NCBI GenBank assembly: GCA_044892525.1 | Contig: CM097885.1 | Location: 104,346,001-104,410,000 of the forward strand | DNA length: 64,000 nt | Direction of reading: 5' to 3' | Source: Schmidtea polychroa | Lineage: Eukaryota | In this document: piece after piece, positions 13,001-52,050 of the stretch | How positions within the stretch are numbered: position 1 is the stretch's first letter | How the letters are laid out: the number at the start of each line of letters is the position of its first letter | Notes under the pieces: model-generated | The model's database searches: none | What the model saw: only the letters and a program-made list of their open reading frames with translations | Told to the model about the DNA's origin: nothing | Position numbers and translations under genes: made by a program

Positions 13001-13761
13001 AGTAGGGTATTGTGTGGAGTCGGGAACAAAGACATATGACGTCATCGATGACGTCACAAAGACATATGAGTCATACCTCCGGGGGAGGGGGGTATTTTTA
13101 TTTTTTTAAACAAAGACATATGACTCATCGTGATGACTCATAATGATGACTCATCGTCGTGACTCATCGTCGTGACTCATCGTGATGACTCATCGTGATG
13201 CCTCGTCGTGATGACTCATCGTCGTGATGACTCATCGTGATGACTCATCAATGTCATATTATTATTTTTAAAAAATATTATTATTTTATTTTTAAATATT
13301 TTCAAAGTTCCCGTCAACGAAAATTATTCATCGATAGCTCATTTTAAAGCTCAATCCAAGAACTTTCGAATGAGCTATTGAAGGTATCATCATCATCATT
13401 AATATTGACAAAGTTATTAACAAATCATGACCACCTTATTTTCATAGTGAAATTATTATTCAAAATATTATTAGTGGTCCAGCGGAGTCCTGGTTTTCGT
13501 TTGCCCAAAAGTTGTCGTTCCAATCATTTTATTTCATTGTTCGATAGCTCATTTTAAAGCTTAGTGCAAGACCTTTCGAATGAGCTATTGAAGGTATCAT
13601 CATCATTAATATTGACAAAGTTATTATCGTTTTCCCGAGACCATTTTCAAGGTCATATAATTATTATTAATCTATATACTCCGAGTCTATCCGACAAAAT
13701 ATTCTGTCCCTCTATTGGTACGGTTCGTAAGGGTACTGGTCACGCTCAACAACTCGCAATG

Positions 13762-13847
<86 letters not shown>

Positions 13848-14096
13848 CTATATACTCCGAGTCTATCCGACAAGATATTTTGTCCCCCTATGGGTACTGT
13901 TTACAAAGGTAAAGGTCACAAATGTACTGCTAAAAAATATTCAAGACATTAACAAAGAAATTATACTTTAAATATATTAACACACTGGGTAAAGGTAACT
14001 AACAAAACTTTAACATATTATTATTACACACACACAATGTATAAAAATTGTTCACAAAGTTAAAAAAAATATTCAAGACAATATGACTAATACATT
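13001..14096 (+). repeat. Left TIR of the Polinton
   Basis: Reverse complement of 28035-29088. Differs mainly in ATT-repeat length and in substitutions within the TGACTCA array; contains internal direct repeats. Confidence 0.95.
13037..13247. promoter_or_regulatory. Array of 10 AP-1 (TGA[C/G]TCA) and 2 CRE/ATF (TGACGTCA) sites in the left TIR
   Basis: CRE at 13037 and 13049; AP-1 at 13067, 13121, 13134, 13147, 13160, 13173, 13186, 13212, 13228 and 13241. Function is inferred. Confidence 0.6.
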
Positions 14097-14453
14097 CAAG
14101 GTCATATAATTATTATTAATCTATATACTCCGAGTCTATCCGACAAAATATTCTGTCCCTCTATGGGTACTGTTCGTAAGGGTACTGGTCACGNNNNNNN
14201 NNNNNNNNNNNNNNNNNNNNNNNNNNNNNNNNNNNNNNNNNNNNNNNNNNNNNNNNNNNNNNNNNNNNNNNNNNNNNNNNNNNNNNNNNNNNNNNNNNNN
14301 NNNNNNNNNNNNNNNNNNNNNNNNCATTATACCAATATGAATATTGTTTTCATGGTGTATCAAATCAAAACTCCTATTTTTATAGTCTATCAACCAATCA
14401 AAATCATATGGTAGTAATATAAATAAAGCAGTATATTTTAAATTAATTTAGAA

Positions 14454-14982
14454 ATGTCGCAACCAAATTTTAGTGAAAATGTTCTAAACGGAATTGTCAC
14501 CGCGAATATAGTCGACAGCCTCAATTTCCTGATCAATCGAACTGAAAAAATCATTGAAGGTGAACATATCGATTATCAGCAAATGATGGAGATAGAATCC
14601 CTGGAAACCAAGAAGTTATACTTCAATAGAATATTTCAGTGTCTTTTCGATGAAGACATGAAATGGACAAGGATAATTGTAGGATTCACCTACATGAAGA
14701 TAATCATTGCAAAAGGTCAACATGACTCAGAACATTATTATCAGTGGTCTTTAGAAGTAAGATTTCTTTTATAATCTATATTTTATTAATATTCATTTCT
14801 AGATAATCAAGTCCAAGTTTACCCCATGGATAGAAGCCAATGGCGGATGGGGTGTATTAAATAAACTGGCCTGCAATTTTAAAGAAACTGATGAAATCAA
14901 AAGAAAAATGAAAAACTATATAAAACTTACAACTGGAGTTGTTATAATGTATATTTTCTGTAGATATATGAATAAAAATTAA
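14454..14982 (+). CDS. Bcl-2 family protein encoded by the Polinton (2 exons: 14454-14756, 14803-14982; 160 aa)
   Basis: BH1-like LFDEDMKWTRIIVGFTY; phase-0 46-nt intron GTAAGA...TTTCTAG; exon 2 gives BH2-like FTPWIEANGGW and a C-terminal hydrophobic anchor with basic tail (LTTGVVIMYIFCRYMNKN). Confidence 0.85.
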
Positions 14983-15027
14983 TGTTATTGTTTTTTAATA
15001 GTATATTTAAATGAAAATAATTCAATT

Positions 15028-15368
15028 TTAAAATTTATTAACACATTCGCAATCGTCATCTCCACATTTCATTATATTTTCAACGACATGATCAATACAA
15101 TCATTCGTAATATTATCTTTAGGTTCCTCTATAGGTTCATAGATTTCTTCATCAATTTCTTGAGTTTCTTCATGATTGTCAAATCCTGAATCTTGACTTT
15201 CAACTACCCAGCCGATATTTAAGGCATTTGTAACAGATAATATGTCCTCAATTTTTACACCAGCTATTTCTGCTAATTTTTCCAACAAAAAGTTGATTAA
15301 TAATTCTAAATAATAAATAATTCGGTATTTAATTAATCATGTTAACCTTTTTCTGTAGTCATTTTCAT
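15028..15368 (-). CDS. Small acidic Polinton protein (exons 15368-15347, 15305-15028; 99 aa)
   Basis: MKMTTEK/ELLINFLLEKLAEIAGV... joined by a 41-nt GT-AG intron (15346-15306); acidic middle, Cys-rich C-terminus (CGDDDCEC). Confidence 0.65.
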
Positions 15369-15495
15369 CACTTTAAAGCTATATTTTAAGTTTGTTTATA
15401 GATTTTCTTTGTTAAATTTGCATGTCATTTGCATTAATGTTGCAATTAATAAAGAGAAAAAACAAATATGACTAATACATTTATTAAATATCACA

Positions 15496-15915
15496 TTAAA
15501 ATAGTTGTGAAAGTCTAGCAGACATAATTTTCCAAATTGGAGAATACACATCATTATTATCAACTTTATATCCTTGGATTGCAATTGTTATATACCAATT
15601 TTCGTTTTCTTTGAAGCTGATTTCATCAAAGGAATCATAAAATCTTGCATATCTGTTGTTGAACCAGGCATGTTGATTACAAGATAGATTCGTATTCAAC
15701 CGTTTGAAAACCTCATCAATAGATTTAACATCTATCGTTGAAAGCGTGCCTGATAAGAATTGAAATTGGGTAGGAATTAGCTTGATCGGTGACGCCAATT
15801 TCATATTGATTTCTTCTTTTAAAAAATACATTTTATAGTTGTGGAACATTTGAACAGGTTGTACAAGTTCTGGAACAACTTTTGGCTTTTCAGTGCTTGA
15901 AATTTTCTTTGTCAT
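15496..15915 (-). CDS. Polinton hypothetical protein, 139 aa (possible OB-fold SSB)
   Basis: Clean ATG ORF with AATAAA at the stop and TATA/CCAAT-like sequence upstream. The C-terminal YITIAIQGYKVDNNDVYSPIWKI pattern recalls viral SSBs (weak). Confidence 0.7.
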   Translation of the reverse strand: MTKKISSTEKPKVVPELVQPVQMFHNYKMYFLKEEINMKLASPIKLIPTQFQFLSGTLSTIDVKSIDEVFKRLNTNLSCNQHAWFNNRYARFYDSFDEISFKENENWYITIAIQGYKVDNNDVYSPIWKIMSARLSQLF

Positions 15916-16188
15916 CGTGAATTATGATTAAAATGAAATGGTACGGGGTTTTTATACCTATGACTATTGTTTATCAACCAATCAGATTGCTGTATGTCTT
16001 TGTTTAAATTTGCATGTCTTTGTTTAAATTGCATGTCATTTGCATTAATGTTGCATTAATGTTTTTTATTATAAATATTGTTTTTTATTATTATTTCTAA
16101 TATTATTATTATTATTACTTATATTATTACTATTATTTCTATTTCTATTATTTCGATTTACAAAAACAAAACAATTCAACATAAAAAT

Positions 16189-16595
16189 TTATTTTGATAC
16201 AATCTGACTCGAGTGATGATTTCTCAGAGTCTTCACCAAACACCATTCAACATATTGTTGATAACGGAAATTGCAACAGCTACATCCGAAAATGCAAGGA
16301 ACCTCTGGTTTCATTTCTTTCATCCCCCTTCCTATCTTGATATCCCATAGAAAGGTGTTTATTATATCGAATATCCAGATTCGTGTTTGGTTGTATACCA
16401 AATCCGGAATGATAGCTGGATCTCTATCTTGTAGAATTTCATTTAATTCTGGATAATAGAAGCATAATCTTTGCAGGATAATTGATTGATACTGATCTGT
16501 AAAATATATATTAATGTAATAATAAAAAATTTGAAATTACCATAATTTGCATGCTCTTTCATTGAGGTGATTGCGGAACTTTGTATGTTGTACAT
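16189..16595 (-). CDS. Polinton Cys-containing hypothetical protein (exons 16595-16541, 16496-16189; 120 aa)
   Basis: MYNIQSSAITSMKEHANY/DQYQSIILQRLCFYYPELNE... joined by a 44-nt GT-AG intron (16540-16497) that puts exon 1 in frame with the track ORF; C-terminal CIFGCSCC cluster. Confidence 0.65.
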
Positions 16596-16716
16596 TTTTG
16601 TTGAATAAATGACAACTAAACCGAAAACATTTTGTTATAAATAATCATCAGCCAATTAGATTTCGACCAATCAGAATCATGCATTTCAATTGCATTGAAT
16701 TTGCAATGATAAATAA

Positions 16717-17181
16717 TTAATTAAGTGATAATAAAAAATCTAAAAATTCATTTCCTTCAATTATTGATTTAATTTCAGATATGATATTATCAACTATACA
16801 TTTGTAATCAATATTTTTTATTCCAAGAATTACTATCTTACCGCTAGCGAATATATTTACACACATAGGGTTATATTTTATATATCTCAAAGCTGGAAAT
16901 AATTCTGGTTCGTAAACACATGGTATTAATTTAGCCAATTCATTTAAATTACAAGAAAAACCTATATCGGAAGTTACGGTTATCGATTGTATTTCTAAAT
17001 CATAAACATTATATTCACTAGCTTTGATTATTTCCTTACACCCTATAATTCTACATTTGCCTGTTTTGAAATATATTATTGGATATTTTTTACTTCTATT
17101 GATGAGTTGTTGTGGTTTCCCCATTGGAAATACCATTTTTGATACATCAGCTTTTGCCCTGTAATTTATATTTGAAAGCAT
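16717..17181 (-). CDS. TATA-box-binding-protein (TBP)-like protein encoded by the Polinton, 154 aa
   Basis: Second TBP repeat clear: IQSITVTSDIGFSCNLNEL...YEPELFPALRY...VNIFASGKIVILGIK. First repeat degenerate: IYFKTGKCRIIGCK. Confidence 0.9.
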   Translation of the reverse strand: MLSNINYRAKADVSKMVFPMGKPQQLINRSKKYPIIYFKTGKCRIIGCKEIIKASEYNVYDLEIQSITVTSDIGFSCNLNELAKLIPCVYEPELFPALRYIKYNPMCVNIFASGKIVILGIKNIDYKCIVDNIISEIKSIIEGNEFLDFLLSLN

Positions 17182-17285
17182 TTTAATGAAATAATTATAA
17201 AAACTCTGTTATATATAGTTATTTTAAAAAGGAGTTCATTTAAATTATCAATATAAACAATAATTATATAGTTTAAATTTAAAAA

Positions 17286-17924
17286 ATGGAATTACGAAAT
17301 GATGCAGTATACCAAATCGTTGGTCCGAGTGGTAGTGGAAAAACATTATTTGTTTGTAAATTACTAAAATCAAATTTGTTCAAAACAAAATTCAACAATA
17401 TTTATTGGCATAGGGGCGCCGATGAAGAACATGGATTGACACAATCAAGTTTCTGTCAATTGAAAAACATGAAAATAGTAAAGGGTTTTGATAAAAACTG
17501 GTCAAGTCGTTTGAAGAAAGATGATGTCATCATTATCGATGATTTGTATCAAGAAGCCAATAAAGAAAAGAATTTTAATAATTTATTCACAAAAATCAGC
17601 AGGCATGCTGGTGTAACAGTTATTTTCATAACACAAAATCTATTTCATCAAGGTGGTGCACATCGAACACGTAATTTAAATGTACAATATCTAGTTATTT
17701 TCAAAAATCCTAGAGATGCAACTGTCATTGATTTTCTTGGACGACAAGCATACCCTAATAACCGTAATTTTCTTATCAATGCATTTCAAGATGCTACAAA
17801 AATACCTCATGGGTATATATTTCTCGATTTCACACAACAATGTCCTGATGATATACGGGTAAAAACAGATATTTTCAACCCAAAAGGTGCCATGGTTTAT
17901 AAACAAAGTTCAAAACAAATTTGA
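17286..17924 (+). CDS. A32/FtsK-like genome packaging ATPase
   Basis: Walker A GPSGSGKT, Walker B IIIDD, ISRH...IFITQNLF...RTRNLNVQYLVIFKNPRD typical of the Polinton ATPase. Confidence 0.95.
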   Translation: MELRNDAVYQIVGPSGSGKTLFVCKLLKSNLFKTKFNNIYWHRGADEEHGLTQSSFCQLKNMKIVKGFDKNWSSRLKKDDVIIIDDLYQEANKEKNFNNLFTKISRHAGVTVIFITQNLFHQGGAHRTRNLNVQYLVIFKNPRDATVIDFLGRQAYPNNRNFLINAFQDATKIPHGYIFLDFTQQCPDDIRVKTDIFNPKGAMVYKQSSKQI

Positions 17925-17937
17925 AAACACATAAATC

Positions 17938-18432
17938 ATGTTTTCAAAAACAAGGATATCGAGTAAAAAACAACCAAAAGTTCCACCAACAACTAGTTAT
18001 ACTCCATCTAAAGAACTTATTACAGAAAATTTTCCTGCAATGAATCTTATTTCGAAAAATCCTAAACCTAAACCTAAAAGTAAAACCACTAAGAAAGTAA
18101 AAGTTGTTAAAAATCATCGGAGTTTCCCGCTTTTCAATACATTGTTAAAGGCACCCAGTATGAAAAGAAACAGTATTTTGCAATCTTTTCCAAATTATGT
18201 TGTCGATGATTTACTCAATATTATACTTAAAGTAGTCAAAGGCAAGATTAAAATCAGTAAATCTAAAAACCAATTATTGAGTAAACATAGGAAACCATTG
18301 TTATCTTTAGTAAATAATAAAAATCGTCAACAAATGAGAAAAATTATATATAAACAACAAGGGGGATTTATCGGTGCATTGATACCTTTAGCAATATCAT
18401 TATTAGGTGGAATAATAGGAAGTCGATCATAA
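17938..18432 (+). CDS. Basic core protein with adenovirus pX(mu)-like C-terminus
   Basis: Very Lys-rich 164 aa ending QQGGFIGALIPLAISLLGGIIGS, resembling the GG-cleavage site plus amphipathic tail of adenoviral pX. Confidence 0.7.
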   Translation: MFSKTRISSKKQPKVPPTTSYTPSKELITENFPAMNLISKNPKPKPKSKTTKKVKVVKNHRSFPLFNTLLKAPSMKRNSILQSFPNYVVDDLLNIILKVVKGKIKISKSKNQLLSKHRKPLLSLVNNKNRQQMRKIIYKQQGGFIGALIPLAISLLGGIIGSRS

Positions 18433-18493
18433 ACAATGGGTGCTAATCCTTCATTACCAGACATTAAATTTAATTTTAAATCTTCTTGTTGTA

Positions 18494-19675
18494 ATGGAGA
18501 AGATTTGGACGAACCCAGAAGACGAAGCCGGTTTCGGTGGAGTGGCAAAATTAAACAAAAGAGTTCCGAATTCGAAAAAGGAAACCCAGAAGTGGTTATC
18601 AGACCAGCTTGCGTACAGTTTGAACAAACCAATGCAGAAACGATTCCCAACAAGAGTATATAAAACATATGGAATAAATGATTTATGGCAAATGGATTTG
18701 ATGGAGATGATACCTTATTCGAAAATTAACAATGAGAATAAATATATTTTAACATGTATTGATGTATTCAATCGGTTTGCCCGAGCAATACCCGTCAAGG
18801 CAAAATCTGCAGATGAAATGTCTAAAGCAATTAATATTTTATTTAAAGATGGGCATCCTAATANNNNNNNNNNNNNNNNNNNNNNNNNNNNNNNNNNNNN
18901 NNNNNNNNNNNNNNNNNNNNNNNNNNNNNNNNNNNNNNNNNNNNNNNNNNNNNNNNNNNNNNNNNNNNNNNNNNNNNNNNNNNNNNNNNNNNNNNNNNNN
19001 NNNNNNNNNNNNNNNNNNNNNNNNNNNNNNNNNNNNNNNNNNNNNNNNNNNNNNNNNNNNNNNNACAGTAAAGTCAAGCAAATCCTCAATAAATTAAAAA
19101 TAAACCATTACTCGGTACATTCTCAATACAAAGCTGCTCATGTTGAAAGATTTAACAGAACATTGAGAGATAGATTAAAGAAATTATTCGTGCATCAAGG
19201 TAATAAAAAATGGGTAAATGCTTTACCGAAAATAATAACAAGTTATAATCATTCATCACATCGAGGACTGGATGGATTGAGACCGGTTGATATTACATCA
19301 AAAACACCAGTATCTAAGAAATCTGTAAAAATTGCAAAACCTAAATATAAAGTCGGTGACCATGTTAGAATTAGTAAAATTAGTGCATCACCATTTATTA
19401 AAAATTTCGATACAAATTGGAGTGACGAAGTCTTTGTAATTTCAAAAATAAATACTAGCCAGAGTCCTGTAATGTATGTCATCAAAGACAATGATAATAA
19501 TATTGTACAAGGGAAATTTTATGAGCAGGAATTACAAGTCATTCCTCCTCCAAAAGTATTTAGAATTCAAAAGATATTGAAAACTAAAAAGGTCGGCAAG
19601 GATAAACAATACTATGTCAAATGGCATGGTTATCAAAACCCGTCATGGATATCAGAAAAGGATCTACTAAAGTGA
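18494..19675 (+). CDS. Retroviral-type (rve) integrase with C-terminal chromodomain
   Basis: WQMDLMEM, LTCIDVFNRFA, HVERFNRTLR, YNHSSHRGL, KVGDHVRI, chromodomain IQKILKTK...YYVKWHGY..PSWI. The second catalytic Asp falls in the N-gap 18864-19064. Confidence 0.93.
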   Translation: MEKIWTNPEDEAGFGGVAKLNKRVPNSKKETQKWLSDQLAYSLNKPMQKRFPTRVYKTYGINDLWQMDLMEMIPYSKINNENKYILTCIDVFNRFARAIPVKAKSADEMSKAINILFKDGHPNXXXXXXXXXXXXXXXXXXXXXXXXXXXXXXXXXXXXXXXXXXXXXXXXXXXXXXXXXXXXXXXXXXXXSKVKQILNKLKINHYSVHSQYKAAHVERFNRTLRDRLKKLFVHQGNKKWVNALPKIITSYNHSSHRGLDGLRPVDITSKTPVSKKSVKIAKPKYKVGDHVRISKISASPFIKNFDTNWSDEVFVISKINTSQSPVMYVIKDNDNNIVQGKFYEQELQVIPPPKVFRIQKILKTKKVGKDKQYYVKWHGYQNPSWISEKDLLK

Positions 19676-20687
19676 ATTTTTATACTATTTTACCGAGCAA
19701 TAGTTGCCCATTAATTCATCCAGACAATCAAGCCAGTAAATTTATGGTCAATCTCCAGAATCCGATTTCTTTAAATGGTGACTGGGAAGTTGCACTGCAA
19801 GATTTTACATTCGTGTACAACACATTCCCATTTTATAGTCAATGTAAGATTGATTTCAAAAGGAATATTGTGAAAACATGTAGCGGTATCTTTATTATCA
19901 GTAATTATGATAAAACATATCGTATTCCGAATCAAATATTAGATTCACATTGCTATATGTTTTACAAGGATGGATTAAATATCAGTTGTGATTTTAAACC
20001 ATTTACAATAACATTCGAATATATTGAAGATGCCAAACGAATGGGTTGCAGTAAGTTGAAAAATATTGTTACGGAGACCGAGTATTTATTACGTTTTAAT
20101 CTATTTGAAGCAAACAGTGTAATGAAAGAAGAAATCAAAATATCTGTATCGTATAATGATGAAGTTGAAGAATCATTTACCTTTGCTGATGAATTATATT
20201 TTGATAAACTTGATGATTTACTTAAATATTTAAAGTTCAATTGTTCACACATATTTAAAAATTTGGAAATTGTGAAAGATTTGATGTTTACCTTCAGTTT
20301 GAATGATGATATTTGTGAAGTTACATTTGAAAAAATTTGGCAAATTCGCTTGGATTAGATAAGCAAAAATATCGAGAAAAATCGACTGGTATACGCAAAC
20401 CAAGAATACTAGAACATCATCAACAAATGTTCATATATATAAATATTATCGAACCCATAATTGTTGGTGATTCCAGTGTTCCTCTATTGAAATCGGTATG
20501 GATTGGAAAATATGAACATGATGAAGTTGTCAATATAAATATAGATAATCCCATGTATTTACCAATAGCAAGTTCATGTATAAACAATATAGAAATAAAT
20601 ATTCGTGATGATAGTGGAAAACTTATAAACTTTCCAAAAGACTCAAAAACTCATTTGACACTACATTTTCGTAAAGTAGATGGCTAA
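19645..20687 (+). pseudogene. Minor capsid protein (penton), frameshifted near 20330-20340
   Basis: N-terminal FYTILPSNS..HPDNQASKF.V.L...I.L.GDWEVAL; C-terminal MFIYINIIEPIIVGDSSVPLL...LHFRK. Adding one A to the A6 run joins the two ORFs (FEKNLANSLGL). Confidence 0.85.
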
Positions 20688-21042
20688 TTCCGATATTATT
20701 AGTATGTATAGTGATAGCCAATCTGGCGGTGAATTACCATATTTTATTGGTAAACAGTACGGATCAGGTTGGTTAAAAACAATAGGGAGATTTGCACTTC
20801 CTATTCTTAAACGTATTGGTAGTTTTGGCATGAAAACTGCTAAAGACGTGATTATGAATGAACAGAAAATATTACCATCCCTAAAAACAAATGCTTTAGC
20901 TGAGTTAGGGAAGGTTCTACCTGGAGTTGCTGGTATGTTTCAAAAAGATACGCCTCCAGCCCCAGCTCAAAAACGTAAAAGACATGGAATATCGCGTATA
21001 AACAAACGAATGAAAGGACATGGAACTATATTTGCAAAATGA
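20680..21042 (+). CDS. Small virion protein with QxGG/QxGxG motifs and amphipathic helix (pVI/core-like)
   Basis: SQSGGELPYFIGKQYGSGWLKTIGRFALPILKRIG, basic C-terminus; lies just upstream of the major capsid gene. Confidence 0.75.
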   Translation: MANSDIISMYSDSQSGGELPYFIGKQYGSGWLKTIGRFALPILKRIGSFGMKTAKDVIMNEQKILPSLKTNALAELGKVLPGVAGMFQKDTPPAPAQKRKRHGISRINKRMKGHGTIFAK

Positions 21043-22223
21043 TTTGTGGTAAATCCGAATTATGTATATTTGATAGACCATCGCCTCAAGCTGTAATAGA
21101 ATTTGGTGCATTTGAGGAAGTTTTTCCTATGAATTCAATTACTGATAGTAGAAATGATATCGAGTTTTATATTAATGGTTCGCAAACTGAATATTTAGAT
21201 TTGAACGATACTTTATTGACTGTTCAGATCAAGGTTGTAGATAAAGAAAGAAAAGTTTTGGATGCCAATGCAGATGTAATACCGAACAATTTCATGTTTC
21301 ATACTCTGTTTAAAGATGCAGTGTTGGGATTTAATAATATCAAGATTGAAGGCATTAATAGAAACTATTTTAAATTACAATTCTGATACTAAAAATACAT
21401 GTCTTACACCTATGGGTTATGGCAGTGATGATGAAAGAAAAAAGTGGGTTAAAGGCTCAAAGGTTTTCACCATGTGCTCATCATTACAACTTGATTTTAT
21501 GGATCAACCGAAATATTTACTACCGGGAGTTAATGTACACATTAGACTGAAAAGGTTCGATTCTGCATTATCTCTTACTAGTGCAACTGGTGCACCAATA
21601 TGCCAATTAGTTGATGCAAAATTATTGGTGAGAAGAGTTCGAGTAGACCCGTCAGTATTAGCTGGTCATCAATTGGGGCTTAATTCAAAACATGCAATTT
21701 ATCCTTTAAAAACAAAGGAAATTGTACAATTTGCTATTGCTAAAGGTGCTTCATCATTCTATAAAGAACAAATATTTGGTGACAGAAGAATGCCTAATTT
21801 TATTCTGGTAACATTTCAAAGTGAAACGCAATATAATGGATCTTCCAGCTCAATTTTCAAAATTTTGGTGTTACTTCATTGACTTTGTCGAAAAATACTG
21901 ATTATAGAGAAACATATACTCAAGATTTCGAAAGCGATAATTACTGTGCGACATATATGCAGAGTATTGTTAGAAATCTGGGTTACTTAGATAAAAACTT
22001 GAATTGTGGAATAACTCTAGAAGATTTTAAAAGCAAATACCCATTTTTCACATTTGTTTTAGCCCCTGATTTTGATTTAAATCAGAGTCAACTACCTCAA
22101 AATGGAAATTTACGACTGGATATTAAGTTTGCAAGAGCCATTACTGAACCGGTACATGTTATAATATATGGAGTATTTGAAAATGAAGTTCAAATTACTG
22201 CAAATAGAACCGTGCTAGTATAA
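21039..22223 (+). pseudogene. Major capsid protein (double jelly-roll), broken into three ORFs
   Basis: KSELCIFDRPSPQAVIE...IEFYINGSQTEYLDLNDT; ALIETILNY; LQLDFMDQPKYLLPGVNVHIRL; RMPNFILVTF; GNLRLDIKFA. Frame breaks near 21350 and 21850. Confidence 0.9.
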
Positions 22224-22635
22224 ATGTATACAGAAACACAAAACGTTGTCATGGAGTAAGTTTTTTGATACTGTTTAATTTTATTAAAGTAGTTCTGTTC
22301 AGGTTAATCGAATTGGAAAACAGATATTAGGAAATGAATTTATAGGTGTTTTTCCTCTTGATAAAATTCCTTATTTGAGCAATAATCAAGCTATAATCGT
22401 CAATACTCATTCATCTCATCTTGGTGGAGAACATTGGATAGCTATATATGTGAAACCTAGTAATATATTCGTATTCGATCCTATGGGTTTCTATTATCCT
22501 TCTTTGTTGATATCAAAACTTCAAACAATTGGGAAACCTATTGTATATAATAAAACTATGTTTCAAAATCCATTGACTCAAACATGTGGTCAACACTGTT
22601 TGGCATGGTTGTTGTATACAAAATTTGATGGTTAA
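22224..22635 (+). CDS. Adenain-like cysteine protease, spliced (exon 1 22224/22251-22255, exon 2 22293-22635)
   Basis: Removing the 37-nt intron GTAAG...GTAG gives MDSVQVNRIGKQILGNEFIGVFPLDKIP. Catalytic GEHW, FDPMG and QTCGQHC are present. Confidence 0.88.
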
Positions 22636-23072
22636 TAAATGTATACTGTATGATTTTTATTTGTTGACTATTTTAATTATTTGTTAAATATTATTATTAT
22701 TATTAATATTATTATTATTAATATTATTAATATTATTATTATTTTGAAAAAATATTATTATTTTAATTAATTTTATTATTCAAATAAATATTATTAATTC
22801 TACATAAAGACTACCTATGCCTGAAGCATGCACAGTGCAAGTTAACAAAGGCATGACTAACAAAGGCAGTCACATGTAATTTTTGAGTGATTTACATGTA
22901 TGCGTGTGATTGGTTGAGAGAGTAAAATATTCAGTGTATATGTGTGTGTCTATATTCTCATTGGCTGGGACAGGAAAATATTCATTCTCTTTATAAACAT
23001 CGACAAATCTAAAATTTGTCACAATTATTTTAAAATTTTAAAAATCTATTAATAATAATAATATTTAACAAC

Positions 23073-23337
23073 ATGAACAACAACAATATTCAAAGAGTTG
23101 ACGGAAAGATCGTTGGAGGAATTAATGGTAAATTTATTATTTTATTATTTTATTATTTTTAATATGATTATTAGGTACTAATCAACAAATGAATATCGAC
23201 GGACAAGCTGTAGACATGAATAGAATAAATGGTAATAGTTTACTATTATAATCATTATTATTTTATTATGCTTTTAGATGGAATAAATACTTCTGCTGGT
23301 TCTGATGCTGGAAAATTTCTTTCGAAAGGACGAAAAT
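23073..23337 (+). CDS. Micro-exon gene inside the Polinton (23073-23127, 23175-23231, 23278-23337, then an open donor)
   Basis: Three phase-1 exons of 55, 57 and 60 nt separated by 47- and 46-nt GT-AG introns read MNNNNIQRVDGKIVGGINGTNQQMNIDGQAVDMNRINDGINTSAGSDAGKFLSKGRK. GTAAGT donor at 23338; next exon not identified. Confidence 0.65.
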
Positions 23338-23380
23338 GTAAGTATTTATTTATTGTTATAAGTTTTTAAGTTTTTTAAAC

Positions 23381-23461
<81 letters not shown>

Positions 23462-23477
23462 TAAAAGAAGATTATAA

Positions 23478-23720
23478 AGAAACTTATGAAAAGAAGATAT
23501 TTTAAAAGAAGATTTATTTATGATGATTTTGAAAGGAATATTTATGAAAAGAAGATTTATTCATGAAAAGAAGATTTATTTATGATGATTTTGAAAAGAA
23601 GATTCATGAAAAGAAGATTTATTTATGATGATGATTTTGAAAAGAAGATTTATTCATGAAAAGAAGATTTATTTATGATGATTTTGAAAAGATGATTTAT
23701 TAAATATGATGATTTTGAAT
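23478..23720. repeat. Degenerate tandem repeat (gaaaagaagatttatt/tatgatgatttt units)
   Basis: About 8 imperfect copies upstream of PolB. Confidence 0.8.
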
Positions 23721-23981
23721 ATTATAATTAATAACTTTTATATATTATTTATGAAAATAAAATCTATTTTAGAAAATGAATTATTTATTTATGAAAATGA
23801 ATTAAATTATTTATGAAAACGAATTAAATTATATATTTTATAATAATTTTTATAGTATTTTTTTATAAGATACTATTTAAAAGACAATTTTGAATAATAT
23901 CTTACGAAAAATATCTTAAACTTTAAAAATGATTATCTTAATATTTTTTAAACATTTTATGATAAAAATATTTTCATTGGT

Positions 23982-26900
23982 TTGAAATACCAAAACTTTT
24001 GTAATAGTCAATATCATAATGACGGCGATGATATAATGGAAAGATATTATAGTCATAAATATAACGGTGTCACCTACATTCTATGCCCTAAATGTGAGGT
24101 TATTGAAGTTATAACGTATAAGGAATTTTATAATAAGCATAGACTCCATCTCCAACAATTTAAACCTTCTAAGAAGTCTCTTTTCTATAGCTTATATGAA
24201 TCGTTTGTTAACAATAATAATAATAATAATAATAATAATATCACCAGCAACAATAATATCAACAATAATGATAATAATATCACCAGCAACAATAATATCA
24301 ACAATAATGATAATAATAATATCACCAACAATAATACTAACAACACCAATAATAATGATATAAACGAAATAACTGAACTAAAAGATCAAGTAAATAAATT
24401 AAATGATCAAATAAATAATCTAATTAATATGAATAAAAGAAAAAATAATGAAAAAATAAATTCAATACCAAGTAAAAAATCTAAAGTTATTGATGTAATT
24501 ACAATAAGTGATGATGAAATAATCAACATAAGTGATGATGAAATTGATAATAATAGTAGTAGTAATATTTATTATAATAATGGTATTAATAATAATATTA
24601 ATCAAATAGGTTATGGTGTCGTAGATGTCACCAGTGATTTAAATAATAATCATATTATATTAAAAATGGACGTTTCGTCTTTAGATTTAAAAACGGTCTC
24701 TGTACCAGACATTTTAATAAATAAATTAAAATTATATGTAAATAAATTAAAATCATGTAAAATTCAATTTTGTCTAAAGGTGGAATTTATAAAAGATGAT
24801 GAGTTACAATCTTTTGTAATCTCGAATTCCGCCCGAGTTTGGAGCGATACATTCATTGACGAAGGTATTGCTCGTTTAAATGAAAAAATAATTAAAATTA
24901 ATGAGAAAGGTAGTAATTGGACTATCAATAAAATAGAATACATAAGCTTTGTTCTTACTAAATTTGCTGAAATAAGTCGGTTAAGTGGTAGAAGTTTTAT
25001 TGAAACCCCAAAATCTTTAAGAAACTTAAGCTGTCTCGTTAATGTAGTTAATAATGACCACTTCTGTTTTTTGTATAGTTTCTTGTCAATTATTAAATAT
25101 GATAGTATAAATAGGCAATATAGAAATCGCCCTAATTCATACAATCTTTCTGAAATTAAATTTGATCCTAATGATATGCCGATGAAACTATCAAATATAA
25201 GTAAATTTGAACAACAAAATCCAGGTTATAGTATAAATGTTCTTACTTATAACGAAAAGGCTTTGATTGACATTTCCGATGAAGATGCAGTTATGAAACA
25301 TCCCTTTATTGATATAATATACAGGAGTAAGATAGTAGGAGCCATACCTATCAATTTATTATTAATTGAAAAGAATGATAATTATCATTATCTTGGAATC
25401 ATAGACCTAAATAGATTCCTTAATTGTAGGAATAGTTCAATCACTCCTGTTAGGATTTGTAGTCAATGGTGCCCTAGATGTTTAAACGGTTTTAGGAATG
25501 ATGACGCTTTTAATAGACATAAGGGTCTTTACGATAAAAATCAGCTTGGTACTACCTTGTACACATTGCCTAAAAATAAATATTTAGAATTTACTGATTG
25601 GAGTAAAACAGTCACTCCTCCCTTTGTTATTTACGCTGACTTTGAGGCTATCTTACCTAAAGACACTCGCTACTTTCAACGTCATCTGCCTATTTCTGCC
25701 GGTATGCTTTTTATTAATAATTTCTCGGGCGTAAAGATTTATAAGTCGTTCACCGGTTTAGATTGTGTCGATCAATTTCTTACTGAAATTGAAATGATAG
25801 GGAAATATATTGTAACTCCTTATTATTATAAAAATTATCAAAAGAAAATGATAATTACAGATGAGCAGGAATTAATGTTTGAAAACAGCACATCATGCTA
25901 TTTGTGCAATAAGCCTTTAGTTAGTCCAGTTAGGGACTATGATCATTTTACCGGTTTATATCTCGGTGCCGCTTGTACAACTTGTAATCTGTCGAGGCAA
26001 ATTAGACATACCCTTCCTGTAGTATTTCATAATTTAAAGGGTTATGATCTGCATCATATCTTGAAATTTGGCCTTTCAAAATATCATTCATGGAATATTA
26101 GTTGTATTCCTTTAACCAGCGAGAAATTCCTTAGTCTTTTTGCTAGGATTGACTCATTAACTGTTAAATTTATAGACTCTTATCAATTTGTCAGCGAGTC
26201 TTTAAATAATGCTGTCAAAACTTTATCATCTTTACCCTTGACCGAATCAGAATTTCAGGGTACAATAATAACTGCAAAAGGAATTATTCCTTATGATGCC
26301 GCAACTTCATTAGAGGTTTTGCATAACACTCATCAGTTACCTCCTATTTGGAAAGATGTGACTCCCGCTGAATATGAGACAGCTCAGAGAATTTGGCTTG
26401 AAACTTCATGTACTTCACTTTTTGATTACACGATGGTTTATTTAAAACTTGATGTTTTCCTTTTAGCCGATTTTTTCCAGCAATTTAGAGCTAAGTCCAT
26501 TGCTCATAACCGACTAGAGCCATTAAATTTCTTAGGGATTCCAGGTATGTCTTGGAATTCAGCCTTATTAACTTTAAACTCTCCAATTGAGCTCCTCACC
26601 GATATGGAGATGTATAACTTTTTCGAGGGCGGTATCCGTGGCGGACTAACTTTTGTAAATAAACATTATGTAAAAACAGACCCGGATACCGCTTTGCTTT
26701 ACATAGATATAAATAATTTATACGGTTGGGCTTTAAGTCAACCATTACCTTGCAGTGACTTTGAATGGGTTACTGATGATAATTTATTAAATAATATAAT
26801 TGTTGAATGCACAACGGTAGATTTAGATCTGCTTGATTATGGTTATACCATAGAAGTGGATTTAGAAATACCGACGTCAATTCACGACAAACTGGACGAT

Positions 26901-28014
26901 CTTCCCGTTGCCGCTGAAAAGATGTGTGTACCGGGTTCGAAAATAGAGAAGCTGTTGCTTACACACAGCCCCAAGAGGAACTACGTTCTTCATTGGAGGC
27001 TTCTACAAATATTTATTAAATTAGGTGTTAAAATATTAAAAACACATAGAGCAATAATTTAAACAAGATAAAATTTTCAAAAATTATATTAACACAAATA
27101 CGGCGTTACGAGCAGCGTCGACAAATAAACTTTATAAATTATTAAACAACAGTCTTTACGGCAAGACTGTTGAAAATCTTAAAAAACGTATTAATTTACG
27201 TCTGTGTAATTCTTCACAGAGATTATTAACATTCTGTTCGAAACCGACTTTTCGTAAATCCACGAAAATCGATGATGACTTGATTTCGGTTTTATTGAGG
27301 AAGGACATAGTGTGTTTGAATAGACCTAGTTACATTGGTCAAGCCGTACTTGATTTATCCAAACTTCGCATGTACCAGCTGCAGTATGAAGAGTTGCAAA
27401 AATATCGCGACGAATTCAACTGCGAAATTAATATCGTTGCTGGAGACACAGATTCCTTCTTCTTGGAAATTAAACATTGTAGTCTTGACATTCTTTTACC
27501 TGCGATGATTAGAGATCAATTATTAGATACTTCGAATTATGACCCAAATCATCCTTTATATAGTAGGAACCTTGATTCTGTTATTGGTAAATTCAAAGAC
27601 GAGAATAAAGGGTTATTATATAAAGATTGGGTGTTCTTGAGACCTAAATGTTACAGTTTGATGGGTGATGAGGAAAGTATGAAGGCTAAGGGGATAAGTA
27701 TGAAAGATACTGGACTAACACCCCAGTCGTATCTAGATTGCTATTTAAATGATAAAATATACACAGTCCCTCAGTTTAGAATAACGTCAAAAAATCACCA
27801 ACTTTTTAGTATTAAAAATAATAAAAGAGCCTTGACATGTAGAGATGATAAGCGAAATTGGGTGGATAAAAATCAAAGTTTGGCATATGGCCATTATAGG
27901 GGCGGTGACACCGTTATATTTATAGATTCAACGGAAGCTATCTCAACAGATGATACAGATGATTTCCATGATCCAGCATATGATAATTATTTTGGACATG
28001 ATTATTTTCGATGA
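23982..28014 (+). pseudogene. Protein-primed family B DNA polymerase, frameshifted at ~27057
   Basis: Exo motifs VIYADFE, FHNLKGYD, YLKLDV; Pol motifs LYIDINNLYGWA, KLLNNSLYGK, GDTDS; endonuclease-VII-like Zn domain CYLC...DYDHFTG...ACTTCN. ORF 23982-27062 continues in another frame that is open from 27058 to 28014. Confidence 0.95.
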
Positions 28015-28034
28015 TGTGTTTAAATTATTTAATA

Positions 28035-28283
28035 AATGTATTAGTCATATTGTCTTGAATATTTTTTTTAACTTTGTGAACAATTTTTATACATTGTGTG
28101 TGTGTAATAATAATATGTTAAAGTTTTGTTAGTTACCTTTACCCAGTGTGTTAATATATTTAAAGTATAATTTCTTTGTTAATGTCTTGAATATTTTTTA
28201 GCAGTACATTTGTGACCTTTACCTTTGTGAACAGTACCCATAGGGGGACAAAATATCTTGTCGGATAGACTCGGAGTATATAG

Positions 28284-28327
<44 letters not shown>

Positions 28328-29088
28328 CATTGCGAGTTGTTGAGCGTGACCAGTACCCTTACGAACCGTACCAATAGAGGGACAGAATATTTTGTCGGAT
28401 AGACTCGGAGTATATAGATTAATAATAATTATATGACCTTGAAAATGGTCTCGGGAAAACGATAATAACTTTGTCAATATTAATGATGATGATACCTTCA
28501 ATAGCTCATTCGAAAGGTCTTGCACTAAGCTTTAAAATGAGCTATCGAACAATGAAATAAAATGATTGGAACGACAACTTTTGGGCAAACGAAAACCAGG
28601 ACTCCGCTGGACCACTAATAATATTTTGAATAATAATTTCACTATGAAAATAAGGTGGTCATGATTTGTTAATAACTTTGTCAATATTAATGATGATGAT
28701 GATACCTTCAATAGCTCATTCGAAAGTTCTTGGATTGAGCTTTAAAATGAGCTATCGATGAATAATTTTCGTTGACGGGAACTTTGAAAATATTTAAAAA
28801 TAAAATAATAATATTTTTTAAAAATAATAATATGACATTGATGAGTCATCACGATGAGTCATCACGACGATGAGTCATCACGATGAATCACCACGATGAG
28901 TCACTGCGATGGGTCATCACAATGGGTCACGACGATGAGTCATCATGATGAGTCATCACGATGAGTCATATGTCTTTGTTTAAAAAATAAAAATACCCCC
29001 TCCCCCCGGGGGGTATGACTCATATGTCTTTGTGACGCCATCGATGACGTCATATGTCTTTGTTCCCGACTCCACACAATACCCTACT
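28035..29088 (-). repeat. Right TIR of the Polinton
   Basis: Inverted copy of 13001-14096. Confidence 0.95.
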
Positions 29089-30803: not shown

Positions 30804-31045
30804 AGTTATAGTATAGTACTATTCGGTAGTATTAGTCATAATTGATTTATCATAATTTTAAATAATTTGATTTTTAAACCGAAAAGTTGACAAAATTATT
30901 TTTAAATAATATTTAATTAAAATAAATATATTTGTTTTAATATGCAAAATTATAATTTTATATAGTATTTATTTCAAACTTAAATTTAATAAATTTGTTG
31001 ATATTTAAAAAAATTTTTTGGTTATTAATAATATTTTTAAATAAC

Positions 31046-37510: not shown

Positions 37511-38648
37511 TAGGGTTTCTCTCTCGGGATTTCTCGTTCCCGATTTCCCGGGAAATCCACCAAAATATCTATTCCCGATTTCCGAAGAAAAAAATTAAAT
37601 TTTCGGCATTATTTTAAACATTTATCAACAAATAATTGAAAATAAATATTTCAAAACTACTTCTTGTTTTATTTAAAAATATTTGAAACCAAAGTAACAA
37701 TTGACTTTTATGTTTTCGAGATTATGTAGGTGCACTATAACTATATAATATTTTTTTAAAATCAAAGCGTGTGTGTCTACTGTTTAACAAGCATAAATTT
37801 AAAGTTTAAACAATTTTCTTTGTTTATTTGTGAATTAAAGTAAGTTTTATTAAATTTTAATATCAATTTTTATTTTTTTTACTGATATACAATTTTAAAT
37901 AATAAAGAGAAAAAGAATGTCAACAGAAATGACTTGGAGATTTTATTTTACCATTGATTCTACTAATAAGGACAAAGCAAAATGCAATAAATGTAATCAA
38001 ATGATTGTGAGAAAAGGATGTTCAACAAGTGGAATGAATCGTCATTTGAATATCCAACATGGAATAGATATGATTACTAAGAACGATAAATTCGACGCAC
38101 CAAGTACATCATCGCCTGGCACATCTGATAAATCTATTTCATTTTAAAATATATAAAGAAAAAAACATTGGAAGAAATTCTTGCAAAACTAGCAGCTGTA
38201 GATGGAATTTTCATCAATGTTATTTCGAAAAGTACATTTATTCGTGAATCTATTTCTGCGAAAGGATATTTTCTTCCTAAAAATCCTTCATACATAATGA
38301 ATCTTATATTTAACTATTATGCCAACCTCAGTGGAAAGTGAAAGAGTATTTTCGACTGCTGGCCTTTTGTCAATAAACTTAGGACAAGACTCAACGATAA
38401 ATCAGTTAATGCACTAGTTTGTCTTAGAACTCATTTTAAGAACTGTGCTGATAAATAACTTTTTTTTGTTCTAATTGTAATTAAGTTTTCTGTTGTAATG
38501 AAAAAAATGAATATATTAAATGTTTTTAAATTCAAATTTTTTTTAATTATTAGATAGTATAACCCGGGTTTCTTGGTTTTCCCGGGAACATCTTCCAAAT
38601 ATTCTCGTTTCCCGGGATTCATAATTTGGCGGGAAATGAGAAACCCTA
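37511..38648 (+). mobile_element. Internally deleted hAT transposon (BED finger plus dimerisation fragment)
   Basis: TIR TAGGGTTTCTC; 8-bp TSD TTTCCGAC (37503-37510, 38649-38656); subterminal TTCCCG repeats; BED finger WRFYF...AKCNKC...STSGMNRHLNIQH at 37917; SERVFSTAG...RTRL near 38340. Confidence 0.93.
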
Positions 38649-41655: not shown

Positions 41656-42495
41656 TTGTAAAACTAAAAATATAAATAATATATATACTGAATTTAAACA
41701 AATTAATTTAAATATTTGTTTATATCAATAAACTTTGAAAATATTTTTATTGTTAATTATTTTCAATAAAATTTAAAATTGAAATTATTTTTTTAAATTA
41801 TTAGTGAAATTTTTTAATTAATTTAAATTAATTCAATTCTTTGATAATTTAATAATCACAATGTTTAAATTAAATTTTTGCTTTTATTTTGATATTTTGA
41901 TTTAGATAGATTAAAAAGTAATTAATTGTTGCATATCAGATATATTTTATAATTATTTAAAATTTTTAAAAGTTAAAAATTTATAAGTGTTTTTAGGCAA
42001 ACAATTAGTATGTAAACTTTATTTGTAATGATAAAAACTGAAATATTAATTATTTAAGCCACATATAATATTAAATATTTAATAATTAAAAAAAATTTTA
42101 AAAAAGTTTATGAAAATTTTATATATAGTTGTAAATTATTGTTTGAAGTAAAAGAAAAATTAAATAGATTATTTAAATGTGCTCCATAAAAAATTTTTAT
42201 TGTTCCAATATACAAAAATTTATTTTTATTATTGTTAAGAAGTGGCAATTGTAACAAATGTTATTCTCCAAGACAAATCAACCAACATGCTATTATATTG
42301 CTATTTATTGCATAATATTTAAAAAAGGAATATATTGGTTTAGTAATTATTGATATAGAATACTTGCAAACACCGACATACAAACATTCAAATCTAACCA
42401 CCAATCATCATAAATAACCTCTGAATTTGACATGTTATTATGCAATTGGTTAATTTAATTAATTGTGTAGTATTTATTTATCGTTCTTTACAATT

Positions 42496-43181
42496 AGTAG
42501 ATGGATTGGGCACCGCTGGCACAGGGCACCGCTAGCACACCCCCAGGCCCGGATTTACCTATAGGCAGACTAGGCACTGCCTAGGGGCCCGCAGTTTTGG
42601 GGGCCCCAAAATCGAACGATTAGCCAAATGATCATCCAAATCATTTGAGTTTCTACGAGATAATTAAGGAAAAAAATTTGGAAATTGCTTTTCCAAATTT
42701 GGAAACAATTTTAAGAATTTTTTTGTGTCTAATGATTGCTAATTGCACTGGCGAAAGAAGTTTCTCAAAATTGAAGCTGATTAAAAATTTTTTGAGGTCA
42801 ACGATGAGTCAAAAAATTTTGAATAATTTGGCCTTATTATCTTGTAACATTGATAAATTGAAAGCTATTGATTTTGATTCATTGATTGATCAATATGCTC
42901 TAGAAAAATTTAGAAAGAAAGTTTTGTAAAATTATATTTTTGACATGACATATGTATCTTATTTTTAAACGGAATTATTTAATAAATATATTTCAAAATA
43001 TAAATAGGTAGTAAATAATTATTTCTTAAATACTTTTAGCAAATAAAATAACCTACATAATTTCCTTGAAATATACTAATTAATTTTGAGGGCCCCAAAA
43101 AGCTCCTTTGCCTAGGGCCAACAAATGCTTAAATCCGGCCCTGCACACCCCCCTGTGCCAGCGGTGCCCAATCTATCTACT
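42496..43181. mobile_element. 78-bp AGTAG-ended fold-back mini-element (Polinton-type ends) interrupted by a hAT insertion
   Basis: TIR AGTAGATGGATTGGGCACCGCTGGCACAGGG, 30/31 identical to the right end; 6-bp TSD ACAATT at 42490-42495 and 43182-43187. Confidence 0.85.
42544..43143 (+). mobile_element. Non-autonomous hAT element, 600 bp, with dimerisation-domain remnant
   Basis: TIR CAGGCCCGGATTTA / TAAATCCGGCCCTG; 8-bp TSD CACACCCC; ORF 42645-42929 FPNLETILRIFL...GERSFSKLKLIKNFLRSTMSQ. Confidence 0.93.
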
Positions 43182-46100
43182 ACAATTATTATGAGAATAT
43201 TTTCTTATTTATAATAAATTTAATTGATATTTAAATTTTCTTATATTACTATAAAATTGGATTATTGCCAAATTCTTTAAAAAATTCATATTTATTATTT
43301 TAAATTTCGTTTATTTTCTTTTTTTCCGGGATTATAATCAATGTTTTGTTTTCTGTTTGACACAAGTTTTAAGAAATGTTTCTATCAATTATTTTTCGAA
43401 TATTTTTTTTATCAATAAAACTGTGAAAGTAATTAATTAGAATTGGTATTTAATTTCTAGTTTTAAATAGATTTTAATAATATAATAAAAGTAAATAATC
43501 AAATTATAAATTAAAATAATAAATTAAATATGAATATCGAAGTTGAATGGTTGTGTATTCAATTATTAACTTATGCGTGCGAAAATATCCTGAAAACAAA
43601 AAACAGAGATTGTTTAAATTAGAGAGATTTTGTGTTATGCTTAAAAATATAGTTTTTTTGTTTTGAAATATTATGGATGTTATTAATTCAAGAAATCAGA
43701 CATCTAATAAGAATTTTAAAATATTTTTACAGTTAATTATATTAAAAAAATTATTTAAAATTTAAATTTGTGATAATTATTTACTTAATGTGATTGATTT
43801 GGTGAAATATTTAAATAAATATAAATTAGTTTATTCAAATTATTTAAAAAAAATTTCAAACAAGTCCATTTTTTTTAATAATTTAATAGAAAATAAATTT
43901 TTCACTTTTAATTTTACATTTTAACCTAGATAAATTATACAAATAAATATTATTTACAAAGCAGGTAAATTTTATAATTAACTAGCTTGCTACCCGGCGC
44001 TATTTGGAATATAAAAATATATTACAAATAGTTCCATGCAATGATATAAAACTAACAATAAATAAGATAATTACATGAAAATGTCTCTATTTTCTTCCTT
44101 TCTGTACAAAAACCACAATCCAACCTTACCTCACCCTATTTTGCCATACAATACCCATCCAGATAATAAAAAGAGACCAAAAAGAAAAAGTGAAAAAAAT
44201 AATAAACGTCCAAATTTCGTCTAAAATTCGAATTTTCTTATTATATTTTCGGATAAAAATTTTGGCATTTTTGTAGAATTAGAAGTTCATTCGGTCTTCT
44301 GTTTCTTTTTAACTTAGAAAAATTGAATGCATTTGCCTACCTTTTACTCATAATTTGAAGTTGATATATCCGGACATACAAATACACATACTTTATACGT
44401 GTCTTATTTTGAAAATGAACTTAAGCCAACAATTGTGGAGTTCTCCATCTTTTTGAATATTCATGACAAAATGTTAAATTTGTTGATTTTTATTTATATT
44501 AGATTCATTAATGTACATCAATTTAAATATATTTGGTCATGAATAACAATTTAGAAGAAAGTGGTTTGGAAAGAAAACTTTGAAAACTGAGTGAGCGTTC
44601 AAAGTTTATTTCCTAATCATATGTGTAATAACACAATCAAATACGTCCCACCAGCGTCAACGCCAGCGTGAAGGTATTAATTTATTTATTAAATTTCAGT
44701 CTTTATATGTTATTTTGACCCATCACTGTTTTCTTTCTGATTCCAAGAATATGTAATATTTCGTAAAATTCGTGACCGCTTTCCATTGCGTCAATAATCT
44801 ATTTTTATCATCTATGGTTATTCTATAGAAAGGTTTTAGAGATTAACTAAAATTTACTGAGAAACTTTATTTATGGATTTCTTGAGCTGGAAATAATTAA
44901 TTCCGAAGAAGCATCCAATACATATTCATATTTGGATTTAAAATTGAAAAATTTTAGCTTGTCAAACGTCCAGAAGCTTATTCATTGTCATATTGAGTGT
45001 ATTTTTATTATAGAAATTTTGTATTTATTTATTTTTCTTCCAACAGCAATTTTTTCTGTCTTTCTATAGTGTAAGAGTCTATTTAATGTCACAAAGCTAA
45101 TTCAATGTCAGTTCTGGCTATGACACACACACACACACACTTATTATAGGTAAGTTAAAATTTATATTATAAAAAGCTAAATCAATGTCCATTACATGAT
45201 TATCGATTGCTGGTTGGTATAATAATATGAAATTTCCATTTAAAAGACATAGAAAAAAATTCGACTTTCCTGAAAAGGAATGGCGCTAGTCAGCAAGCCG
45301 AAGATCCACAATTATTATTGATAGAACGTTACTTAACAATTGTGGATAATGCTTTGAATTCCAATCAAAAAATGGTTAAACTCCTTAAATGAATTCATGA
45401 ATATGTTCGAATATGACTTGGAAAGACCTTACAAGTTCCTAATGGCGATTCACTTGAATAATGAATTATATTACTGACCCTTTATAAAATTTATTATTTA
45501 TTCAAACAAATAATCTAATTTCCTTATTTGCCAACTTCTTTGTAACTATAAGTCTATTATCAGCAGTCGGAATTTTACTGATGAAAAATTAAAACTTGTC
45601 GCCGAATCATAAAGTTTTCTTACACTTTTTTTTCTTTAATTTTATATAAATTCCAAAAACAACCTAAAACGAGTAGAAATGGAATTGTCTGCAGAAACGG
45701 AACTCCTTCGTAAATCACACTTCATATTTAATTTTTTTAACAATTTTACTGAAAAATCTTGGAATTTTCAACTGTCCACAAAAGCTTATCATTATCATTT
45801 CATGCTCACCGCATCCAGTTGGCATCGGCAAATCACACGTTGAAAATTATTTTTTTCATTCTCATGACTTTCGTCACATCAGTCATTCACTGCCAATTTT
45901 TGGACCCCTACATTTCATGGCAATGACAAGGTCTGGCAGTCTCAAGTTTCAATAATAACTTTCCGAATTTCAAATTACAAATGTTGATANNNNNNNNNNN
46001 NNNNNNNNNNNNNNNNNNNNNNNNNNNNNNNNNNNNNNNNNNNNNNNNNNNNNNNNNNNNNNNNNNNNNNNNNNNNNNNNNNNNNNNNNNNNNNNNNNNN

Positions 46101-50589: not shown

Positions 50590-51299
50590 CATCCTACTTA
50601 TATGAAACTGGCTTTTCTGCTCTAGCAGTTTCAACGATAAACTATCTTATTATTATTTAGTGATTGAAAAGGAAAAATCGGTTTTCAATGTTACCAAAAT
50701 TTGTGAAAATATATTCTGAAAACACTATGGGAAAGTTTTTAGGTGCTCCAAAAATGTAAAAAAATTAATACAAATCAATAAAATTTATGTCGGGAAAAAA
50801 TTGTTCAAAAATGTATATTAGTTCATTTATAAAAAAACAATTAAACAAAAATCTTCTCATGGTGAAATGGCAACCCTTTTATTTTTGAAATTCAAACTAT
50901 CTGATTGAAATTATTTTTTTTTGATAAACAGGATTAAATATTGAACTTTCTAAAGTTTAAACTTGAAATTCACTGATTTCATAATTGTTTCGAATTAAAT
51001 AGAATATTCTGTAGTCTCGATATTGGAGGACTTCGTAGAGTTAAGCTTATTTGTTTTTATAAATATATTAAAAATTTATTTTTACAAAATAATATAATTA
51101 TTTTTTGATGTATAAATAATAAATTCATAAAAAATATGGTAAATTGTTGACTATTAAATAAATTATAATTTAAGAACTTTGTGAAATTTGAAGGACGCCA
51201 AAATTTATTAGGGTAAATGAGGTGAAAAAAACCCAATGAATTGCAAATTGCAATGATAAAATGTTAAAATATGAATTGACAAAAATAAATAGCAAAAAT

Positions 51300-52050
51300 A
51301 AATTTATACGACCAAGCAATTATAAATCAATAAAAATCAAAAATAAATTGATTCAGCCAATGGAAAATATAAATCCATAAAAATTCAAAAATAAATTTGT
51401 TCGACCAATCAAAATCAAAAAGCAATTATAAATCAATAAAAATTCAAAAAATTTCAAAAATAAATTTATTCGACCAATCAAAATTGAAAAGCAATTATAA
51501 ATCAATAAAAATCAAAAATAAATTGATTCAGCCAATGGAAAATATAAATCCATAAAAATTCAATAAATTGCAAAAATAAACTGATTCGGCCAATCAAAAT
51601 TCAAATGTAAATTTATATCACTGAAAATCAGTGAATGGAAATTACAAAATGTATCAGCCAATGAAAAATATAGCGCAAATATAAATCGATAAAACAAAAA
51701 TAAATTGATTCATCAATTCAAAAATACAAATCTCAAAAATAAGTTAATTCGACCAATCAAAATTCAAGTGTAAATATAAATCAACGAATTGAAATGACAA
51801 AATGTAACGACCAATCAAAAATATAACGCAAATGTAAATCGATAAAAAAAATTTCAAAATAAATTAATTCGACCAATCAAAAGTCAAATCGATAAAATAA
51901 AATGTATCAGCCAATCAAAAATATAGCTCAAATATAAATCGATATAAAATCAATAAATTGCAAAAAATAAATCGAATTAATCAATATTCAAATGCAAATA
52001 AGAACCAATGACAATCCAAAGAATTGAAATGATAAAATGTATTGACCAAT
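51300..52050. repeat. Imperfect tandem array rich in (g/a)ccaatcaaaa / cagccaatg motifs
   Basis: More than 12 related units such as ttcgaccaatcaaaa and gattcagccaatggaaaatataaatc. Confidence 0.8.

Follow-up and report, generated by a model that had tools for sequence, protein, structure and literature searches.

The window analysed here, a 64,000-nucleotide stretch of the Schmidtea polychroa genome, carries a piwi gene on the reverse strand (39187-41655), which is read as a single frame of 822 amino acids with PAZ and Piwi domains and which we take to resemble planarian piwi. The start codon of this gene lies 835 bp from the left 6-bp duplication of a nested insertion, placing the insertion within the upstream region of the gene. 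Three insertion layers were found there within approximately 760 bp (Table 1). Other features of the window include a G-patch/DUF4187 gene (30995-31753), a 300-aa frame with no Pfam match (34280-35182), a 1138-bp hAT-like element with TAGGG ends and an 8-bp duplication (37511-38648), an array of approximately 58-bp repeats (51270-51950), and 30-bp tandem arrays inside a CPSF73-like gene region (53300-54560).

A large Polinton is also resident in the window and belongs to a different family from the insertion near piwi. Integrase, ATPase, and polymerase remnants were recognized in it, the polymerase being split over two frames (23982-27062 and 27058-28014) and the integrase frame crossing an N gap. 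Its inverted repeats are longer than 1 kb and contain 13-bp tandem units. No relatives of the resident integrase were found in viral contigs. A TBP-like frame (16717-17181, reverse strand; PF00352, E 5.3e-15) is located inside this Polinton, head to head with the ATPase.

Table 1. Positions of the nested insertion, its parts, and the resident Polinton in the 64-kb window.
Feature	Position	Strand	Evidence
Resident Polinton, 16,088 bp, different family; AGTAG..CTACT ends, GGGCGT 6-bp duplication	13001..29088	.	sequence and profile search
Older dispersed repeat, adjoining the insertion site on its left	42426..42489	.	contigs of 425-2123 nt matching only there; loose ends before 42426 and behind 42488
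Left target-site duplication copy, ACAATT	42490..42495	+	sequence; boundary at 42496 set by contig loose ends
Left TIR, 31 bp, AGTAG start	42496..42526	+	sequence; X1, X2, and X3 contigs leaving before 42496
16-bp GC-rich subterminal unit, copy 1; candidate protein-binding site	42508..42523	+	sequence repeat search
16-bp unit, copy 2 (15/16); other family members go on from here into GTA and a C-run	42524..42539	+	sequence; contig loose ends behind 42539
Left 8-bp duplication copy of the nested hAT, within the C-rich centre	42536..42543	+	sequence
Nested hAT, 600 bp, shortened internally from a longer element; inserted later	42544..43143	+	sequence; contigs of the longer parent depart at 42616 and enter at 42614
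hAT transposase C-terminal dimerisation domain remnant	42675..42845	+	PF05699, E 6.8e-9, residues 14-70 of frame 42636-42926
Right 8-bp duplication copy of the nested hAT	43144..43151	+	sequence
Right TIR, 31 bp, one 16-bp unit at 43154-43169; position 8 unlike the left arm	43151..43181	-	sequence
Right 6-bp duplication copy, ACAATT	43182..43187	+	sequence

The outer element spans 686 bp (42496-43181), begins with AGTAG, and ends with CTACT. As the original prediction had described, its 31-bp arms are complementary at all but one position (30/31) and are flanked by a duplicated ACAATT, and removal of a nested 600-bp hAT together with one 8-bp duplicate leaves a fold-back of 78 bp. The predicted structure of this residue is a 31-pair stem with a 16-nt loop (-37.9 kcal/mol), and its GC content is 61.5%, whereas the 500-bp flanks have 20% and 18%. 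A 16-bp unit occurred three times in the window, twice in the left arm and once in the right arm of the outer element, compared with no occurrence in 100 shuffles. The residue has no coding capacity, the sole protein trace inside the outer element being the hAT remnant. It is thus short and non-coding with inverted repeats and a target duplication, as a MITE is, and it lacks the protein-primed polymerase B and retroviral-like integrase genes of an autonomous Polinton. No further copy of the outer element was found within the window, and no Rfam match was obtained in 41700-44000 at E up to 1. A solo LTR was rejected because the arms are inverted.

Contigs of 4 of 24 listed public runs, with no RNA run among those listed, were aligned to 42330-43350, namely X1, X2, and X3 of organism A (two studies; X1 is possibly the source sample) and X9 of organism B; 11 further organism B runs and a metagenome run (shares 0.23-0.24) were left out of the contig evidence. 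The contig results given here comprise the best 24 of 338 loose-end rows and 32 of 3627 pieces. Both junctions of the outer element were carried by contigs of X1 (42330-42521 and 43151-43350) and of X3, and the right junction was also present in X2, ruling out chance or an assembly artefact.

The nested element has the 8-bp duplication CACACCCC, terminal repeats matching at 13 of 14 positions, and a remnant of the C-terminal dimerisation domain, all of which are features of hAT transposons. An overlap of 3 bases (42614-42616) marks its deletion point. In organism B, a 3185-nt X9 contig differed from 42614-43115 at one position, and the outer ends had zero depth in that run. This near identity in two labelled organisms, seen in one run of organism B with no long single-copy B flank among the matches listed, suggests either that the element was recently transferred horizontally or that the two shared a very recent burst. 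The 42426-42489 repeat likewise occurs in organisms A and B, and its other copies diverge behind 42488.

A single copy, which had been named as a result that would speak against the original prediction, is not what was found for the ends. Contigs of X1, X2, and X3 carried them next to unlike flanks, indicating a multi-copy family, and the approximately 40 junction contigs in X1 correspond to roughly 20 elements or more, provided that they are not alleles. The summed depth of the left arm was 1,850-9,550 times the single-copy depth, or 60-310 times after division by 31 for contig overlap; summed contig depth is not a copy number, and these values are taken only as a sign and bracket of abundance.

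Most ends of the family do not look like those of the 42496-43181 copy. Behind 42539, 53 (X1), 34 (X2), and 22 (X3) contigs read GTA followed by a C-run (median 11-15 letters), which is lacking in this copy. Behind 42541, 6 contigs in X2 and 8 in X3 passed the C-run for 42-52 letters and entered A-rich sequence, not the right arm. The depth of the right-inner-arm bin was at most 4.0% (X1), 1.1% (X2), and 2.7% (X3) of the left-arm summed depth, a comparison in which the left arm may also have received contigs that match both. Judged from these sequences, we infer that the usual end of the family is longer than the arms of the 78-bp copy on both sides. The number of 16-bp units also varies, as indicated by one X3 contig that steps back from 42537 to 42508.

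Among the matches listed, one joint lacking the hAT was detected. A single X3 contig (depth 19) runs from 42522 to 43149 with 7 letters between, so that it has one 16-bp unit per side, would measure approximately 67 nt if its ends are whole, and has a junction unlike that of the 78-bp copy. Two short forms with two junctions imply that short forms arise more than once, and they probably do so repeatedly at C-runs. No joint skipping the whole element, as expected of an empty site, was found in X1, X2, or X3 of organism A, where contigs show presence and not absence.

With a probability of roughly 0.55, we consider the 42496-43181 element to be one copy, deleted in its centre, of an abundant family whose ends are of the Polinton type. 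According to this explanation, a Polinton-type retroviral-like integrase, from a family other than that of the resident Polinton, would have inserted the element at a 6-bp staggered cut. At each side of an unseen interior, the usual family end would be built of 12 terminal bases followed by two 16-bp units, GTA, and a C-run. Fold-back DNA is prone to deletion between short repeats such as C-runs. A deletion of this kind may have removed the interior together with one right-arm unit, the inner one, leaving two units on the left and one on the right, either at the present site or in a recent donor copy. The hAT entered the C-rich centre later, and the 78-bp form would not be the main propagating unit.

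The original prediction was that the 78-bp element is a non-autonomous Polinton derivative mobilised in trans. Its AGTAG end, its membership of a multi-copy family, and its Polinton-like signature stand, but the 78 bp as the unit that moves is not supported: the usual ends run on into GTA and the C-run, the right-arm form is rare, and the junction of the other short form differs. No autonomous partner was found, exact patterns of the left arm giving 0 matches in viral contigs and 0 in metagenome contigs. The data lean towards a collapsed copy. They also lean against the proposal that this copy defines the minimal cis-requirement for integration.

The idea can be widened to a true Polinton MITE family. 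Most members would then measure 70-120 bp, the 78-bp form being one size variant, and would have a variable C-run as their centre; a Polinton integrase acting in trans would excise and reinsert them. We regard this explanation as doubtful. The arms and the duplication are nearly perfect, the X3 joint provides a second short form, and the 40 or more junction contigs in X1 indicate that these ends have moved often. Because most contigs break off after 11-15 letters of the C-run, the interior of the family is unseen, and short, variable C-run centres could hide there; contigs bridging a short centre may also have too few matching letters to align. However, no G-run loose end, which the right arms of such short elements would be expected to produce, was present behind 42526 among the best 24 of 338 rows, the right arm reached at most 1-4% of the left-arm depth, and contigs that passed the C-run entered A-rich sequence. 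Many copies of a uniform short unit characterize MITEs, whereas here many ends were accompanied by a single listed joined form across the three organism A runs, with a different junction, and two forms with two junctions suit repeated collapse as well as spread. The more specific claim, that a high-copy 70-120-bp family is moved by a Polinton integrase on ends of 12 bases and one 16-bp unit, is in our view rather doubtful.

By general knowledge, cut-and-paste MITEs resemble the 78-bp residue in being short and non-coding, in having inverted repeats with subterminal units and a target duplication, and in their birth by internal deletion. They differ in forming a high-copy uniform short unit, and the presumed mobiliser here is a virus-like element.

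The assignment to Polintons rests on the ends. Among the end signatures compared, only Polinton/Maverick unites AG..CT ends with a 6-bp duplication, according to the accessible parts of the sources (PMC6839031, PMC8097293, PMC10045372). Polintons are described there as having 6-bp duplications and AG ends (PMC6839031, PMC8097293). The outer element has 5'-AG..CT-3' ends and a 6-bp duplication, the latter in the one copy that could be tested, since the flanks of the other copies are unpaired. Of 660 AGTAG..CTACT pairs in the 64-kb window, two were flanked by a 6-bp duplication, namely the outer element and the large Polinton. The chance of a 6-bp match at a fixed boundary is p ~0.002 under the local composition, and 6 bp was the only matching duplication length between 2 and 11 bp at the AGTAG boundary.

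The shared ends and duplication length of the outer element and the large Polinton, and the difference between the interiors of their terminal repeats, agree with the original prediction. A rule used in Repbase for non-autonomous elements asks for the same duplication length and for termini that align over positions 1-11 with at most 1 mismatch, as given in the accessible text (PMC4455052). Only 6 of 11 bases agree with the resident Polinton in this comparison, which is limited to one Polinton family. The match at the start of the repeats covers only the 5 terminal bases, and beyond these 311 of 500 shuffles scored as well. The resident Polinton family was therefore ruled out as the parent, since the 1-11 rule fails and there is no further likeness.

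In the accessible text on vertebrate Polintons/Mavericks (PMC8097293), AG..CT ends, inverted repeats, and a perfect 6-bp duplication are shared with the present element. These vertebrate elements are 12.7-24.6 kb long with inverted repeats of 46-1447 bp, whereas the residue is a gene-less 78 bp with arms of 31 bp. They also carry (AGT)2 or (AG)3 terminal motifs, in contrast to AGTAGA here; the resident Polinton, with AGTAGG, departs from the motif too, indicating that it is not general in the Schmidtea polychroa genome. Gene-less or partial DNA with Polinton ends is on record as the non-autonomous entry named Polinton-1N1_DR, for which the accessible text gives no size (PMC9341505), and as repeat-only Polinton remnants of C. 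elegans, whose repeats measure 744 bp against the 31-bp arms here (PMC11414722). Polinton-N1A_NV carries a capsid gene (PMC11296320), and the accessible part of a lizard survey reports no non-autonomous Polinton copies (PMC3014272). No Polinton derivative shorter than 100 bp was found described in the literature, as far as its text was accessible; Repbase, the founding Polinton papers, and the AcademH paper lay outside this search and may hold such elements. A possible link between PALTTTAAA repeats of C. elegans and Polintons was not found in print and was dropped.

The family could instead be an unclassified group of DNA transposons moved by a non-Polinton transposase, having acquired AGTAG ends and a 6-bp duplication by convergence or chance, an explanation that we consider unlikely. 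Cut-and-paste elements commonly have short, GC-rich arms that contain subterminal units, and the arms described here fit that pattern. The agreement with the resident Polinton at 6 of 11 terminal bases and nothing more, the duplication length taken from one copy, and the zero depth of the end in X9 of organism B (42505-42539), where contigs show presence and not absence, can be read in the same direction. On the other hand, the other groups with 6-bp duplications end differently, IS3EU and GingerRoot in TA..TA and Ginger in TG..CA, according to the accessible text of their descriptions (PMC10045372, PMC6839031). The 6-bp duplication was found here only with AG..CT ends, not with TA..TA, and no duplication of 2-5 or 7-11 bp is present at the AGTAG boundary. 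The base before the end varies among copies, which excludes groups with fixed TTAA or TA targets.

The position of the boundary bears on this assignment. Because the first letter of ACAATT is A and its last is T, the inverted repeat can be extended by one base, and the same letters can also be parsed as TAGTAG..CTACTA with a 32-bp inverted repeat and a 4-bp duplication, CAAT, a parse absent from the original prediction. Neither one copy nor an empty site can decide between the two parses, and contigs from other copies were used. Departures from the window sequence just before 42496 were seen in 27 (X1), 24 (X2), and 19 (X3) contigs, with a flank agreement of 0.43-0.44, indicating that the flanks differ between copies. 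Departures before 42495 accounted for 13 of the 40 contigs in X1 and 14 of the 38 in X2 in the two boundary rows listed, close to the 26.5% predicted if a T stood there by chance (P 0.38 and 0.20, respectively). Since departures were frequent at 42496 and occurred at 42495 only at the chance-T rate, the end of the element is AGTAG, and with no other 2-11 bp duplication there, the contigs favour the 6-bp parse over the 4-bp one.

AcademX elements have pyrimidine-purine ends. A non-autonomous element of the AcademX or a similar type, extended by one base on either side, is very improbable: the 32-bp inverted repeat and the CAAT on both sides would suit it, and AcademX duplications are 3 or 4 bp in the accessible text (PMC10045372), but it needs a boundary at 42495, which the contigs reject, and a fixed terminal T predicts no departures before 42496, against the 27 of 40 (X1), 24 of 38 (X2), and 19 (X3) observed, unless these contigs come from a sister family without the T.

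To our knowledge, the route by which Polintons move has only been inferred, whether it involves virus particles or excision followed by self-synthesis. If a high-copy short family were indeed moved by a Polinton integrase, the enzyme could excise and re-insert DNA too short for packaging, by cut-and-paste or hairpin copying; this would bear on how Polintons leave and enter chromosomes and would provide a natural minimal substrate. Likewise, if the 78-bp derivative were mobile, the ends alone would suffice for movement, and integrase biochemistry would gain a ready substrate. At present, the copy offers a well-bounded end of an abundant family that was not found in the searches made, together with a candidate 16-bp binding unit, and it may be a sign of the repeated collapse of Polinton-ended elements at C-runs.
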